Shown here piece after piece: positions 5,925 to 12,891 of a DNA stretch of 14,688 nucleotides; the first letter of the stretch is position 1, and each line of letters starts with the position of its first letter. The stretch spans positions 1 to 14,688 of the forward strand of contig PRDJ01000027.1 of the NCBI GenBank assembly GCA_003345555.1, read 5' to 3'. Made by a program: the position numbers and the translations under genes. The DNA comes from Candidatus Thorarchaeota archaeon. Its GTDB lineage: Archaea > Asgardarchaeota > Thorarchaeia > Thorarchaeales > Thorarchaeaceae. The notes below the pieces were generated by a model. It did no database searches. It saw nothing but the letters and a program-made list of their open reading frames with translations, and had not been told where the DNA came from.

Positions 5925-6040
5925 AGTGCCAATTAGACTAGCCTGCACAAACGAATTCCGAGATAGGCACGACAGAGACTCTCTTGTTGACCGTGAATCG
6001 CGAGATCGGTCGACAGGCCACATGGCACCAACAACACACT

Positions 6041-6056
6041 TGACAACGTTTATATG
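6041..6056 (+). promoter_or_regulatory. Putative BRE-TATA promoter of rpoH
   Basis: TGACAACG followed by TTTATATG (6049-6056), about 42 nt upstream of ATG 6098; a near-consensus archaeal TATA. Confidence 0.55.
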
Positions 6057-6097
6057 AGCTATGAGAGCGCGGAGCTTTGCGCCCGGGTGCTTCTCCC

Positions 6098-6658
6098 ATG
6101 GTAGACCTTCCAGCATCAGTGATTAAGACCAGAGGTTTGCTTACACTTCGTGGCTACAAGGTCGATGAGCTCTTTGAGTATGAGGACCGATACGTCATGC
6201 TCCCTGTGAAAGAGACAGGTGAAGGTGCTATCAAGTCGGTGGTCTGGATATTCAAGGAGGCGAAAGTCGTTGGCGTCGCGATAGTCAAGGACATCGCACG
6301 AGACATGGAAGAAGCCCAAGCTATTGAAGGAGTCCTAGTAGGCGGTTCTCGTTTCACTCCCGCTGCAAGGAAGTTCGCACGGGCGGCCAAGGTGGAACTC
6401 GTCGAGGGCACCTATTCCTCATTTGACCTGTTCCAGCATGAGCTGGTTCCAAAACACACCATCGTGAGTGATGAAGAGGTTCATATGGTTCTCGAGCACT
6501 ATGGGATCAAGAAGCCACAGCTTCCACGAATTCTGAGGGACGATCCCGCGGCGAAGGTACTAGGAGCCAAGGCAGGGCAAGTCATCCGTGTGGAACGTGA
6601 CAGCCCCACTGCTGGCAAGACATACTACTACCGCGTTGTTGTAGAGGCGAGTCGTTAG
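6098..6658 (+). CDS. rpoH: DNA-directed RNA polymerase subunit Rpo5/RpoH with an N-terminal RPB5 jaw-like (restriction-endonuclease fold) domain
   Basis: 186 aa. Residues from 109 onwards (FDLFQHELVPKHTIVSDEEV...QLPRILRDDPAAKVLGAKAGQVIRVERDSPTAGKTYYYRVV) are a classic RpoH/RPB5 C-terminal domain. The ~105-aa N-terminal extension has LRGYKV, KVVGVAIVK and FTPAARKFA. Confidence 0.93.
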   Translation: MVDLPASVIKTRGLLTLRGYKVDELFEYEDRYVMLPVKETGEGAIKSVVWIFKEAKVVGVAIVKDIARDMEEAQAIEGVLVGGSRFTPAARKFARAAKVELVEGTYSSFDLFQHELVPKHTIVSDEEVHMVLEHYGIKKPQLPRILRDDPAAKVLGAKAGQVIRVERDSPTAGKTYYYRVVVEASR

Positions 6659-7478: not shown

Positions 7479-8987
7479 TTATCGGGAATCATCCTGAGAG
7501 TTCTCAGCTGCCGAGACCTTGAGACCCGATTCCTCTGAGAGGGCACTGATGGCCTTATCGACAGAAGTCCTCAACATACTTACCTTTTCCCCTCTTGCAG
7601 AAACCCAGACTCTAAGAACCTTTGAAGATCCGTATGTTTTGGGCATAGACTTTATGTAAACCCCTGGATTCTTCTTCATCACCCTGTCAATGTACGGTGA
7701 GAATACGGTCTCGTCCGATATCTCAAAATCCACGATTCGTTCAAAGTAGTGTTGCGTGCTCTTCTTCTCTACCCACGGACGAACAGAGGTTTCGAAAATC
7801 GCTCTCAGTTCGCGAGGAACACCGGGCAGACAGAAAATCGTGGTTCTATCGTGAATGATCATGGCCCCTGGAGCCCCTCCGACCGTATTATCCATCGGAG
7901 ACGAACCCACAGGCAGACGTGCCATCTTCCTTCTGCTCTCGGTCAAGTCCGGGCTGGTGACTATTCCCTGTTCGTACAGATGTTGGTACTGCCTTTGAAC
8001 GATAGACAATGCAGCTGGGTCTTCTTCAAGTTGAAGCCCGAGAGCTGATGCAATTGCGCTGAGTGTCATGTCATCGTGAGTGGGGCCGAGACCTCCTGAG
8101 GTGATGATAACATTGCAGGTCTCTCTTAGGTACGCAAGCCCTCTACCTATTTCGGCAATAGTGTCTCTGACCGAAGTCTGTCTCTCAACGATGACGCCCA
8201 ATGCTGCAAGGCGGAGCTCCATCCAATTCCCATTCGTGTCCAAGATCACGCCATCCAAGACCTCGTCGCCTATTGTCATTATCCCCGCCTTGAGCTGTGT
8301 GGCAGACTCGGCCTTCTTGGTAGGCGCTGCTGTAGGAGCTACAGTTCGATGCAACTCCGCATCCAGATAGCCGCTCACGGTCTTCAGGTGCTGCAGTCTC
8401 GAACCTGCAACCTGCTTCGCCGCTTGTGTACTCATGCTTGCTGCGATTCTCTCGGCCAGAGGGATGAAGCCCCGAATCTCATGGGCAATTCCCTCCATGT
8501 CCATACCTGGCTTCAGCTTAATGCCATTCAATATATAGTGAACCAACCCTACGATGCCCAATTTCACTAGCTTGTCAGCTTCCCAGAGAGCCTGAGCTTC
8601 AGGTGTGGTCAATGGACCATCCAAGGTAAGGCCAACATGCATCCTAATCGCATCGCACACGCGGTCTATCGTTATTCGGTCAATCCCCTCTTTCGTCAGG
8701 ATTTCCCGTGCGGCTATTGCGCTTGCCTCCCCGTGGTTCGAATCGCCGCCGATGCCAGGTTTTGATATATCGTGGAGCCACGCCGCCATCGTGACCACGT
8801 CGAGGTTTGCACCCGTCTGCTGGGCAAGGTATTTCGAGATTTGGACCACCTGACCCACGTGGTCAAAGCGATAGTCAAACAGAGGAACTAATGCCGAAGG
8901 CTGTGCCTTTGTCCATTCGTCGCGAGCAACAGCCGCGCATTGCGAGGATAGGAGGGCTTCGAGTTTCTCTTCCAGTCCCTGTTTCAT
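7479..8987 (-). CDS. Fusion of an HD-domain metal-dependent phosphohydrolase and a CinA N-terminal/molybdopterin-binding-like (COG1058-type) domain
   Basis: N-terminal YRFDH...AAWLHDISK...NHG...IRMH...EADK (HD at 8769-8774). An Ala/Pro/Thr linker at about 8292-8350 is followed by IMTIGDEVLDGVILDTN, ITSGGLGPTHDDMT, NTVGGAPG and LPGVPREL. No PncC deamidase domain. Start ATG 8987 or GTG 8996. Confidence 0.85.
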   Translation of the reverse strand: MKQGLEEKLEALLSSQCAAVARDEWTKAQPSALVPLFDYRFDHVGQVVQISKYLAQQTGANLDVVTMAAWLHDISKPGIGGDSNHGEASAIAAREILTKEGIDRITIDRVCDAIRMHVGLTLDGPLTTPEAQALWEADKLVKLGIVGLVHYILNGIKLKPGMDMEGIAHEIRGFIPLAERIAASMSTQAAKQVAGSRLQHLKTVSGYLDAELHRTVAPTAAPTKKAESATQLKAGIMTIGDEVLDGVILDTNGNWMELRLAALGVIVERQTSVRDTIAEIGRGLAYLRETCNVIITSGGLGPTHDDMTLSAIASALGLQLEEDPAALSIVQRQYQHLYEQGIVTSPDLTESRRKMARLPVGSSPMDNTVGGAPGAMIIHDRTTIFCLPGVPRELRAIFETSVRPWVEKKSTQHYFERIVDFEISDETVFSPYIDRVMKKNPGVYIKSMPKTYGSSKVLRVWVSARGEKVSMLRTSVDKAISALSEESGLKVSAAENSQDDSR

Positions 8988-9031
8988 GAGCACCACTGAG
9001 GCTGCTGACGTTCAGTTGTTTATGAACCCTA

Positions 9032-9799
9032 TCACTTGACGTGAATCCTGTTATACAGCCTGAGTGTGTTCTCTAGGACGATTGACCTGACTTCCTCCTC
9101 CTCTCTGCCAAGGATTGCACCGATCTCCCTCAGAGCTATCCAGACGTTGGCGGGTTCATTCCTTCCGGTTAGATCTGGACCCAAGACGGGGCTGTCGGTC
9201 TCAACGAGGAGCCGCTCGTACTCGACTGCCTTTACAAGATTCCTCTTCTGCGGCGACCGTACAACCGATGTTGGTATCGAGAAATAATACCCCAGTTCCT
9301 TTGATGCCTCTCGTGCTAGACTGGCCTTGCCGTCAAATGCATGCATCTGAACTTGTGACGCTTCACAGTCACGGAGTATGTCCAGAGCGGCCTTGCCTGC
9401 AGACCTCGAATGAATCTGAATAGGCAATCCGAGCTCACGTGCCACACTTATCATTGCTCTCATGCACTCCTCCTGTTCCTTCCTCAGTTCGTGTTCTCTG
9501 GTAAAGTAGTAATCAAGTCCAGTCTCTCCTACTGCCACTATTCTGGAGGACGAGCCGCGCACATACCGCAAAACAGTCTGTAAGTCCCCGCATCTTCTCG
9601 GATCTAGGCCTATTGCAGCATGGACACACGGGTAGTTCTCAGCCAATCGCAAGCCCTCAGGCAATGCCTCAAGGGTAATCGCTGAGGTTATCATGTCTAC
9701 TCCAGAGGCTGATGCTCTACTGATGACTTGCGGCAGGTCAATTCGAAACTCGTCCGACTCAAGATGGCAATGAGTATCAACCACCCTAAGACCATTCAT
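9032..9799 (-). CDS. tatD: TatD family metal-dependent nuclease/hydrolase
   Basis: Motifs DTHCHL, VGETGLDY, IQIHSR, MHAF and ETDSP. GAGGTG RBS at 9809-9814 supports ATG 9799 rather than GTG 9811. Confidence 0.92.
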   Translation of the reverse strand: MNGLRVVDTHCHLESDEFRIDLPQVISRASASGVDMITSAITLEALPEGLRLAENYPCVHAAIGLDPRRCGDLQTVLRYVRGSSSRIVAVGETGLDYYFTREHELRKEQEECMRAMISVARELGLPIQIHSRSAGKAALDILRDCEASQVQMHAFDGKASLAREASKELGYYFSIPTSVVRSPQKRNLVKAVEYERLLVETDSPVLGPDLTGRNEPANVWIALREIGAILGREEEEVRSIVLENTLRLYNRIHVK

Positions 9800-10027
9800 A
9801 CGCGAAGGCACCTCGTCTCCAGGTTCTTGTAGGTCAGGAGTCTAGCATGCTCTTGATAAGCACACAAGTTCAGAATCTGGAATCAGGTTGACAGCTTGCG
9901 CATCTTTCCTAAATACTCGACGCCCTTCAACTCGAGCACACTAAAGCAGGGTCAACCTACAACAGTCGGCAAGATTCAATAGCGTGACTTAGCTCGAGTT
10001 TGGCGAGAACCGATTGAGGCATCGCGC

Positions 10028-11113
10028 TTGAGAAGACTCATAGTCTTGGTGACAGGTTCTAGCGGAACCTCCTACGGCGATATAGTTAGAGCACTCAAGT
10101 CAAGCAAGAGATACCGAATCGATGTCGTTGGCAGCGATTGTCGAGAATCGCTGAGTTCGAAACACTATGTGAAAAGGAATTACTTGCTACCAGACAACAG
10201 AAACCCAGAGTTCGCGAACGCACTGCTTGACCTGTGCGTCAGACAGAAAATCGATATTGTGTTGCCCACTCAGACAGGAGACCAATTGCCGATTTGCGAG
10301 AGGCTCGGAGACTTCCGGGATGCAAATGTTGAACCTGCTCTGATAGTAACCGACCCATTCTTGCTCGACGTGATCCTCAACAAGCGAAAGATGTTGGAGT
10401 ACTGTAAGGAGATAATACGCATTGAAACCCCTTCATATTCCTACGCTGACACTTCCGAGGGCCTAAGAAGAGCTGTTCAGAGACTTGGGCACCCCGAAAT
10501 ACCAGTCGTAGTCAAGCCGAGCTTTGCAGATGGCGGTCGTGGTACAAGGATCCTGAATGAGCGTGTTGACGCAAGACGACGATTTCTCTCAGAAAAGCCA
10601 GATTCTACTTTCAGCTCTCTGAATCGAGTTCTGAACACAATAGGCGACTCATTCCCCGAGATGCTGGTCATGGAGTATCTGCCGGGCAAAGAATACATGC
10701 TCGATACCTTGTGCAGAAAGGGCAAGACCTTTGCCGTAATCCCCGAAATAGTAACGCGGAATGCTGAAGGCGTCACCACAGGCGGTGTTGTCTCAAAGGA
10801 TGACAACTTTGATTCGCTCGTTAGAGTAGCAGAATCTGTCATCGAAGGCTTTGGACTCTCCTATAGCGTCATCGTGCATCTGAAGGAAAACGCATCAGGC
10901 AAACCGTCAGTGCTGGGAATCCATCCGGGACTTCAGGACACGACTGTCATAAGCATAGCCGCGGGCGTCAACATTCCCGAACTTATGGTCATGATGGCTT
11001 GTCGTGAATTTGACTATGCTTACTCGCCTAGGATTGCCTGGGGCCTAAAGATGCAAAGAGTATGGCGTGAGGTCTTTGAATATGGCGGAAAAATCTGGAC
11101 AAGTGACAAGTAG
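10028..11113 (+). CDS. ATP-grasp fold protein 1 (carbamoyl-phosphate-synthase-like family found in glycan clusters); catalytic motif degenerate
   Basis: N-terminal Rossmann-like LIVLVTG, NK, VVKP, DGGRG and MEYLPGKEY are present. The ExNPR motif is replaced by GIHPG. TTG start with GAGG upstream. Confidence 0.85.
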   Translation: MRRLIVLVTGSSGTSYGDIVRALKSSKRYRIDVVGSDCRESLSSKHYVKRNYLLPDNRNPEFANALLDLCVRQKIDIVLPTQTGDQLPICERLGDFRDANVEPALIVTDPFLLDVILNKRKMLEYCKEIIRIETPSYSYADTSEGLRRAVQRLGHPEIPVVVKPSFADGGRGTRILNERVDARRRFLSEKPDSTFSSLNRVLNTIGDSFPEMLVMEYLPGKEYMLDTLCRKGKTFAVIPEIVTRNAEGVTTGGVVSKDDNFDSLVRVAESVIEGFGLSYSVIVHLKENASGKPSVLGIHPGLQDTTVISIAAGVNIPELMVMMACREFDYAYSPRIAWGLKMQRVWREVFEYGGKIWTSDK

Positions 11114-11814: not shown

Positions 11815-12891
11815 ATGCGAAAGCATGTGAAGTTGCTGCTAACTGGCTTTTGCGCGCCGGGCTTCGCAAGCATCGTCTACGCTCTCAGAAAAAGCGCACT
11901 CTATCAATTCTATGTCTTCTCTACGGACTGGAAACCAAACCTCGCGGCAAGCTTCGCGGACAAGTCTGAGGTGATCGGAGATGACCTCGCACCGGACTGG
12001 CCAGACAGAATCATAGAGAGTGCCAGAAGAGAGAAGATCAAGGTCTTGGTTCCCATCCGTACAGACGACTTGGCACCACTTGCAAGGAATGTCAAGAGAC
12101 TCAAGGAGATTGGTGTAATACCTACACTGCCAACCGAGAATCCGGAACTCATCCAGACAATGACTAACAAAGGTGATGCATACGGTGCTCTTACCAAGCT
12201 TGGAATATCCGTGCCAAATCACTTCCGGGTGAACGATCTTGACAGCATGCGAGAAGCGGCATACTCTCTCGGATACCCTGACGTACCCGTGTGTGTCAAG
12301 CCCGTCGTCGCAGATGGAAGCAGAGGATTTCGGATTCTGAACGAAAAGATGGACAAGAAGAGACTATTCTTCCAAGAGAAACCTAGCTCGGTCCTTTCGG
12401 ACTTAGATTCTGTCTGTTCGGTTCTCGGGGATGAGTTCCCAGAAATGCTAGTAATGGAGTATCTCCCAGGGAAAGAATACACGGTTGATGTCCTATGCAG
12501 AGAGGGGACAACCTACACAGTAGTTCCAAGACTTAGGACACAGATGACGGCGGGAATCTCCACTGATGCTGTGCTTTCCAAAGACGAGCACTATGGATAC
12601 ATCTGCGAACTTTCGGAGAAGATAGTCCGGGGATTCAGACTGTCATACAACATTGGGGTTCAGGTGAGAGAGGACAGAAATGGCAATCCCAAGATCTTGG
12701 AGATTAACCCAAGATTGCAGGGTACAACGATAATTAGTGTAGAAGGGGGTGTGAACATACCTGAACTCATGGTCCAAATGGCACTCGGGGATTTCAATCC
12801 GGACTACAGGCCAGAAATCAAGTGGGGTCTTAAGCTTCACAGGGTATATAGAGAGATATTCGAGCTTGAAGGCAAAGTGTGGACAACGTGA
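11815..12891 (+). CDS. ATP-grasp fold protein 2, probable ATP-dependent carboxylate-amine ligase with intact motifs
   Basis: KLLLTG, NK, CVKP, DGSRG, MEYLPGKEYTVD, VVPRLR..AGIS and the canonical LEINPRLQG. Clear paralogue of 10028-11113. Confidence 0.9.
   Translation: MRKHVKLLLTGFCAPGFASIVYALRKSALYQFYVFSTDWKPNLAASFADKSEVIGDDLAPDWPDRIIESARREKIKVLVPIRTDDLAPLARNVKRLKEIGVIPTLPTENPELIQTMTNKGDAYGALTKLGISVPNHFRVNDLDSMREAAYSLGYPDVPVCVKPVVADGSRGFRILNEKMDKKRLFFQEKPSSVLSDLDSVCSVLGDEFPEMLVMEYLPGKEYTVDVLCREGTTYTVVPRLRTQMTAGISTDAVLSKDEHYGYICELSEKIVRGFRLSYNIGVQVREDRNGNPKILEINPRLQGTTIISVEGGVNIPELMVQMALGDFNPDYRPEIKWGLKLHRVYREIFELEGKVWTT

Follow-up and report, generated by a model that had tools for sequence, protein, structure and literature searches.

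The window analysed here is a 14,688-nucleotide stretch of contig PRDJ01000027.1 from a Candidatus Thorarchaeota archaeon, and this study concerns the gene at 6098-6658 on its forward strand, which encodes subunit H of the archaeal RNA polymerase (RpoH, or Rpo5) in a long form. An earlier note, made from the letters of the DNA alone, had proposed that the protein is an archaeal RpoH with a non-catalytic N-terminal jaw of the type known from eukaryotic RPB5 (Rpb5). Our analysis supports this proposal with caveats, the evidence coming from profiles at the family level and the structural comparison ending in a tie. We consider it very probable that the gene encodes a single Rpo5/RpoH in a two-domain, Rpb5-like form, in which a dead Mrr-type domain shares ancestry with the eukaryotic jaw.

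The window gene and its product

The features of the locus are as follows.

6098..6658, + strand: long-form rpoH/rpo5 coding sequence, 186 amino acids plus stop (open reading frame, translation, Pfam, NCBIfam, single genome match)
6098..6421, + strand: N-terminal domain, residues 1-108, a restriction-endonuclease-like fold (alpha-beta-beta-beta-alpha-beta-alpha-beta) without the canonical catalytic positions; homologous to the Rpb5 jaw
6416..6445, + strand: inter-domain linker, residues 107-116, predicted flexible, the sole segment of the full-length model with a predicted local distance difference test score (pLDDT) below 50
6422..6640, + strand: RpoH/Rpb5_C assembly domain, residues 109-181 (PF01191, E 1e-28, profile positions 1-73 of 73)
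6040..6056, + strand: conserved upstream element TTGACAACG-TTTATATG, with a TATA-box-like part at 6049-6056 (sequence reading and conservation in relatives)

The reading frame is intact and uninterrupted over 186 codons and ends with the stop codon at 6656-6658. An in-frame TTG lies upstream at 6077 and would give an alternative product of 193 amino acids. The ATG at 6098 is the likely translation start, because more than 100 homologue clusters begin at the same methionine, with an identical M-[VI]-[ED]-L-P, and because the N-terminal domain (N-domain) has a length of 108 residues in nearly all of ~120 related clusters. Since the closest database relatives of the protein carry Thorarchaeota names, with a few Lokiarchaeota among them, the source genome belongs, as judged from this protein, to a Thor-type Asgard archaeon.

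The identity of the C-terminal part was clear. Residues 109-181 matched the Pfam family RNA_pol_Rpb5_C (PF01191) with 99 bits for a cut-off of 23.5, and the NCBIfam equivalog NF007129, 'DNA-directed RNA polymerase subunit H', scored 104 bits for a cut-off of 83. In the PDB, the C-terminal domain (C-domain) matched Rpo5 of Pyrococcus (E 7e-22) and Thermococcus (E 2e-20), and eukaryotic Rpb5 at E 3e-20. A six-frame search of the whole genome of the organism (82 contigs totalling 2.28 Mb, 93% complete) gave one PF01191 match, the window gene. As no second Rpb5_C gene occurs in this genome, the window gene is the organism's sole RpoH. Two statements of the earlier note held here: that about 108 residues precede the RpoH core, Rpb5_C starting at residue 109 in Pfam, and that archaeal Rpo5 is typically short and limited to the C-domain, the solved archaeal chains having 77-84 amino acids (8cro_H, 4qiw_H, 7ok0_H, 2waq_H). 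The C-terminal 78 residues of the window protein are 40-57% identical to these chains, with template modelling (TM) scores of 0.85-0.89. Unlike them, it has 108 extra N-terminal residues, and its gene lies away from the slot upstream of rpoB.

Among 60 homologues whose N-domains are 49-89% identical to that of the window protein, mean column identity in the N-domain was 71%, with 15 invariant positions. Judged by this alignment, the N-terminal extension is not a product of chance. An AlphaFold2 model of the N-domain, computed on the 60-homologue alignment, reached a pLDDT of 92 and a predicted TM score of 0.83. Its order of elements (helix, three strands, helix, strand, helix, strand) is typical of PD-(D/E)xK nucleases. 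The full-length model had a pLDDT of 84, and its uncertainty was confined to the linker.

Similarity of the N-terminal domain to the eukaryotic Rpb5 jaw

Eukaryotic Rpb5 (RPABC1; PF03871 plus PF01191; PDB 1dzf, 5xog_E, 7eu0_E), which is shared by RNA polymerases (Pol) I, II and III, has the same two domains in the same order, namely an N-terminal restriction-endonuclease-like jaw that lacks a catalytic set and a C-terminal assembly domain. The RGY, VG(V/I), helix and (F/M)TP(A/S)AK motifs align between the two proteins. The differences are that the window N-domain is ~30 residues shorter (108 residues versus 4-137 of the eukaryotic chain), that it is far nearer to active Mrr nucleases and goes unrecognised by the Pfam family Rpb5_N, and that the window organism has one polymerase instead of three.

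Full-length phmmer alignments to Rpb5 were unbroken from residue 48 across the domain junction to residue 180. HMMER also reproduced, with human, fly and yeast Rpb5, the four motif pairings that the earlier note had drawn with RPB5 (RGY; KVVGV with KVGI; the MEE... with the MQE... helix; FTPAA+K with MTPSAK). When the N-domain was taken alone, the single sequence of the window protein returned nothing meaningful from the PDB, and profiles were required. The top 9 matches of the Thor-type N-domain profile were all Rpb5 (E 0.034), with zero nucleases. The long RpoH of Heimdallarchaeaceae gave a clearer picture: residues 1-115 of a 221-amino-acid member sufficed to find the Rpb5 proteins of fly, human and Arabidopsis (E 5.9e-5 to 2.4e-4), and a profile of 32 such N-domains reached E 1.2e-7, with a top 11 made up entirely of Rpb5 and zero nucleases. 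The alignment of Arabidopsis Rpb5 to this profile spanned nearly the whole jaw. This 221-amino-acid protein, to which a scan of 201 Asgard genomes with the Pfam model Rpb5_N had led, comes from closed genomes of another family, and its relatives are named Heimdallarchaeaceae. A profile of Bathyarchaeia N-domains likewise matched Rpb5 (E 7.9e-6) and zero nucleases. The control profile, built from the true Mrr nucleases nearest to the RpoH N-domains, showed the reverse, finding AF1548 (2.9e-7) and LlaBIII (2.2e-5), and Rpb5 at just 0.69.

The three archaeal groups were also linked to one another. By hhalign, Thor-type N-domains matched those of Bathyarchaeia with 99.1% probability (E 4e-19) and those of the Heimdall type with 96.3% probability (E 1.7e-9), and the window protein and the Heimdall form were 29% identical over 173 amino acids at full length (E 1e-22). 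Because profiles free of the C-domain match Rpb5 and the nuclease control does not, the N-domain by itself is, at the family level, homologous to the eukaryotic jaw and closer to it than to nucleases; for the Thor group alone the case is marginal. We read these sequences as a graded series, which would lead from Mrr nucleases through the Thor/Bathy type and the Heimdall type to the eukaryotic jaw.

Structure was not a useful discriminator between jaw and nuclease. With VIA-align, the N-domain model obtained Z scores of 11.0 with EndoMS, 10.3 with AF1548 of the Mrr family and 10.0-10.1 with the Rpb5 jaw, that is, less than 1 apart, for a fold that is common to nucleases, and we therefore set this criterion aside. 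The superposition on RPB5 that the earlier note had suggested, and whose failure it had named as a refutation, was thus achieved, at Z ~10 over the whole jaw (chain residues 4-137/142), for a fold that is not in itself jaw-specific; it covered 103-105 of the 108 residues with a root-mean-square deviation of 3.1-3.4 Å and 16-19% identity, the highest among the structural matches. Foldseek with the N-domain alone listed EndoMS at 2.8e-5, Rpb5 at 3.5e-4 (TM 0.61-0.63), AF1548 at 8e-4 and MspJI at 1e-3. With the full-length model, the best PDB matches were eukaryotic Rpb5 over ~200 columns (E 1.6e-14), and short archaeal Rpo5 followed at ~1e-9. A complex prediction in which the N-domain, Rpo1'' and the C-domain of RpoH were entered as individual chains scored 0.00 and weighs neither way.

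Shared jaw, independent fusion or working nuclease

Among the alternatives, the one that survives best is an independent fusion, in which an Mrr-type domain joined RpoH in archaea in an event separate from the one that gave eukaryotes their jaw, the common architecture being convergent within one superfamily. Several results weigh against our reading, and a number of them favour this alternative. The comparison of Pfam families on residues 1-108 that the earlier note had put forward went to the nuclease side: Mrr_cat (PF04471) was the best family, with 34.2 bits over residues 14-104 for a cut-off of 21, and Rpb5_N (PF03871) gave no match to the window protein even at E<=10. The Heimdall homologue scored 23.5-25.9 bits with Rpb5_N, for a cut-off of 27, and 27.1 when summed in the genome scan. 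The Thor-type profile matched Rpb5 in the PDB at E 0.034 only; by hhalign it was as near to true Mrr nucleases (E 1.8e-18) as to Bathyarchaeia N-domains, and in a library of 1.8 billion representatives it found Mrr nucleases at E down to 3.5e-10. The structural Z scores were tied among Rpb5, EndoMS and AF1548. Finally, membership of the polymerase and the location of the N-domain in it are predicted from homology.

Part of this evidence loses its force on inspection. In the representative search, the N-domain profile returned no canonical eukaryotic Rpb5 to E 1e-3, and because these libraries seemingly hold few or no eukaryotic proteins, their silence is uninformative. A companion search with residues 73-186, aimed at longer forms, returned solely mis-started Asgard forms. 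What argues against separate fusions is, above all, that all three archaeal N-domain profiles match Rpb5 and zero PDB nucleases, with the nuclease control reversed. In addition, the order of the domains is identical and the alignment is collinear across the junction, and Heimdall forms and eukaryotes have in common an F-P in place of the region of the Mrr catalytic lysine. In a maximum-likelihood tree of 49 N-domains, the 13 true nucleases formed one clade (support 100/97), apart from all RpoH-linked domains; here the nuclease sample was small and picked by similarity to the RpoH N-domains, and the tree comprised nuclease and archaeal RpoH-linked domains alone, so that vertical descent to eukaryotes is inferred and not phylogenetic, two further points that count against us. 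On balance, we judge an independent fusion unlikely.

Under a second alternative, the N-domain would still be an active nuclease, or else some unrelated module (of defence or repair, say) that is joined to RpoH in one chain but does not act as a jaw. The Mrr_cat score, which exceeds the Pfam cut-off, could be taken in this sense, as could three conserved residues: K53, present in 58/60 members and lying one residue past the canonical lysine position, the invariant E27, and the conserved E/D29. However, the canonical catalytic aspartate and (E/Q)xK positions were hydrophobic or missing in 60/60 members of the group. In Thor-type N-domains, hhalign and MAFFT placed a gap or, with MAFFT, V33 at the aspartate of the Mrr D...(E/Q)xK set, W50 at E/Q and F/L52 at the lysine. 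This bears out the remark of the earlier note that no PD-(D/E)xK catalytic set is evident. The remnants differ by group, Heimdall N-domains keeping the aspartate alone, with V-R-F at (E/Q)xK and the same F-P as in the eukaryotic FFP; this is what is expected if the domain was kept for its shape. NA-iREase1 (PF22722), a family of inactive restriction-endonuclease domains, also matched the N-domain, with 29 bits for a cut-off of 27. Furthermore, the gene in which this domain sits is the sole RpoH of its genome. The fold is common to Mrr_cat proteins (AF1548, 1y88; MspJI, 4f0p) and NA-iREase1, while the window N-domain, unlike Mrr_cat nucleases, is fused to RpoH instead of DNA-recognition or ATPase modules and has lost D...(E/Q)xK. 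We regard a catalytic or unrelated role as very improbable.

We return to the two-domain, Rpb5-like RpoH, and to how Pfam Rpb5_N behaves across Asgard archaea. Over 201 Asgard genomes this model gave 18 weak matches and exceeded its cut-off in 1/201 genomes; the two Heimdallarchaeaceae matches that were inspected (G085, G039) coincided with long rpoH. Another weak match fell in a family with short RpoH (L006:1156-1950, genome G195), in a 264-amino-acid protein with a C-terminal zinc ribbon, and was treated as a chance match. It scored 20.8 bits and covered the first helices only, around the RGY motif; the RpoH of the host genome has no jaw. Rpb5_N matches of similar size and profile range were seen in other genomes of the same family and are likewise taken as chance.

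Distribution and variants of the long form

With a diverse full-length profile, RpoH was found in 193 of the 201 sampled Asgard genomes. The long form, counted as a best match at E <=1.4e-33, was present in at least 131 of these 193 genomes, which represent at least 18 of the 27 families; the listed matches at that level spanned from about positions 4-21 to 171-185, except for four cut at contig ends. Six families (~50 genomes) apparently have the short form only, as seen directly in three genomes (frames of 81-100 amino acids) and inferred from scores in the rest, and the remaining three families were assigned to neither form. Queries with Bathyarchaeia-type long RpoH against 185,579 species genomes gave full-length matches at 80/80 of the best 80 loci. 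All but two of these loci had titles naming Bathyarchaeia or Bathyarchaeota, the exceptions being metagenome-assembled genomes labelled 'uncultured archaeon' and 'Methanocella'. Thus, the long form is not confined to Asgard, and the lineages in which it is confirmed are Asgard and Bathyarchaeia.

This distribution bears on a third alternative, namely that Asgard and Bathyarchaeia took the long form from a eukaryotic or giant-virus Rpb5 gene. The patchiness within Asgard, with six families seemingly short-form only, and the position of long rpoH outside the rpoB/rpoA operon would fit such a transfer. Nevertheless, archaeal N-domains are far more Mrr-like than the eukaryotic jaw and lack its ~30 extra residues, the C-domain of the window protein has its best PDB match in archaeal Rpo5, ahead of eukaryotes, and the long forms, which occur in no fewer than 18 Asgard families and in many Bathyarchaeia, have diverged down to ~20-30% identity. 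Transfer from eukaryotes is thus, in our opinion, a most improbable origin. As for an annotation or assembly artefact, whether by the merging of two adjacent genes or by a contig that is itself chimeric, clear chimeras and truncations do occur among the metagenomic representatives, but the window frame is uninterrupted, the 185-190-amino-acid architecture recurs in more than 100 clusters from NCBI, JGI, ENA and Logan, and a six-frame search of 20 related genomes gave stop-free long frames, and the linker and junction are conserved, which leaves this explanation with a negligible probability.

Several variants were noticed. In several genera of the window's family, full-length long rpoH genes stand in tandem, in two and up to three or four copies (G005:C31:10603-11843, G006:C19:28810-30011, G008:C32:7989-9181, G012:C3:205388-206584). 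These copies are 57-68% identical to the window protein, with both domains intact and zero stops, and could provide alternative forms of the polymerase. The long RpoH of Heimdallarchaeaceae (P0205-P0238; L007:1432-2097) bears an extra C-terminal tail that brings it to a total of 220-350 amino acids. The tail of P0202 is strongly acidic, and two Heimdallarchaeaceae proteins have a precomputed PF07382 match; the Thor-type protein is tailless. In the Asgard families f14 and f26 (G028:C63:11504-12067, G151:C107:5011-5565), rpoH frames run to 430-500 amino acids, and P0134 (481 amino acids) has additional Mrr_cat-like domains ahead of the jaw and RpoH core, a multi-jaw form. Lastly, P0140, P0144 and P0176 join a thermosome/chaperonin piece, an MscS beta-domain and an Smr domain, respectively, to jaw/RpoH sequence. 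They are probably assembly or gene-call chimeras, and because of such cases family counts from metagenomic libraries call for care.

Proposed role and origin of the archaeal jaw

What was observed comprises the domains and their fold, their homology, the loss of the catalytic positions, the copy number, the wide conservation, and the setting in a transcription unit of its own. The reading of the protein as a two-domain, Rpb5-like RpoH includes three further parts that we infer: that the subunit enters the polymerase, where its jaw sits, and that it touches DNA or factors. The C-terminal 78 residues would act as the universal assembly domain and dock on the largest subunit, Rpo1, as they do in every archaeal and eukaryotic enzyme of known structure. 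If Pol I, II and III are a guide, the N-domain, on its flexible linker, would occupy the place of the Rpb5 jaw at the lower jaw. There it might close the gap that separates Rpo5 from the clamp head and serve as a guard rail and an interaction surface for downstream DNA and factors. With a net charge of ~0, the domain would probably work by steric means and by docking proteins, and not by binding DNA strongly. In Sulfolobales, this gap beside the downstream DNA is the proposed site of Rpo13 (PMC2675907, PMC3479171), a helix-turn-helix protein encoded by a separate gene and related to the jaw neither in sequence nor in fold. Because it is proposed to fill the same place in the polymerase, Rpo13 is likely a functional analogue of the archaeal jaw.

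The literature describes archaeal Rpo5 as jawless, with no archaeon having a jaw (PMC2675907, PMC3479171), and compares the jaw to a 'guard rail' for downstream DNA, whose space is taken by Rpo13 in Sulfolobales (PMC3479171, PMC2675907). To Korarchaea, Rpo13 and not a long Rpo5 was assigned by inference (PMC3479171). A survey of the PD-(D/E)xK superfamily lists Rpb5_N for Eukaryota only (PMC3424549), and a survey from 2026 of the small subunits of archaeal polymerases reports changes in Asgard Rpo6 and Rpo8 and no long Rpo5 (PMC13257274). The long proteins stand in public databases under the plain annotation 'subunit H'. What is new here is an Rpo5 of archaea whose jaw is of the Rpb5 type and yet can still be recognised as Mrr-like; a full-text literature search found no description of a long archaeal Rpo5, its coverage being incomplete and novelty unproven by it.

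As to origin, the fusion would have arisen once in archaea, before or around the divergence of Asgard and Bathyarchaeia, or would have spread between the two by transfer. Eukaryotes would have inherited it, and their jaw would then have diverged and gained ~30 residues. We find it moderately likely that the Rpb5 jaw as a whole is an archaeal invention of this kind, that is, a dead Mrr-type nuclease that joined RpoH a single time, in a common ancestor of Asgard and Bathyarchaeia or with later exchange between them, with the Thor/Bathy forms remaining nuclease-like, the Heimdall forms intermediate, and the eukaryotic ones elaborated. That most Asgard families, and Bathyarchaeia, have a conserved RpoH of two domains places the origin of the jaw module within archaea, and the archaeal long forms supply a graded sequence series from nuclease-like to Rpb5-like. 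They also make the role of the jaw, in guiding downstream DNA and docking factors, testable in a simpler system with a single polymerase. Long RpoH thereby adds a trait at the level of the polymerase to the eukaryote-like features of Asgard archaea, though it is not exclusive to them.

Putative promoter and genomic context

The block TTGACAACG-TTTATATG lies 42-58 nucleotides upstream of the ATG, its TATA-like part (6049-6056) at 42-49 nucleotides. In three related genomes, including one of another genus (69% protein identity), a TTGAYAAYS-TTTATATG block is found at an equal upstream distance. Because this conserved block resembles an archaeal TATA box, it probably is one, and rpoH would have its own putative promoter.

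The genes that flank rpoH encode an EamA transporter and a membrane protein, both on the reverse strand, and HD/CinA-like and TatD genes lie farther downstream. In the same genome, rpoA'/A'' and rpoB are on a different contig. Upstream of that rpoB, we found a gap of ~680 nucleotides (L094:3590-4269) and a divergent SIS-domain gene, and no rpoH. A genome of the same phylum with the short form (G020, L095:4182-4457) has its 91-amino-acid rpoH 46 nucleotides upstream of rpoB. In a small sample of further long-form loci, one from Heimdallarchaeaceae and two from Bathyarchaeia, rpoB was absent beside rpoH. Judged from this handful of loci, the gain of the jaw seems to have been coupled to the loss of operon linkage. 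If the jaw is indeed an archaeal invention, loss of linkage to rpoB/rpoA would be an early step towards the dispersed arrangement of eukaryotic polymerase genes.

Two other parts of the window deserve mention. At 7479-8996, on the reverse strand, a gene encodes a 505-amino-acid fusion of an HD phosphohydrolase with a CinA/MoCF_biosynth domain, and it adjoins a TatD-family gene (9032-9811, reverse strand). At 10028-11113 and 11815-12891, both on the forward strand, lie two paralogous ATP-grasp genes (PylC-like N-domain plus ATPgrasp_Ter), ~700 nucleotides apart and with an open reading frame of 150 amino acids between them; this pair may belong to a cluster for the formation of peptide or amide bonds.

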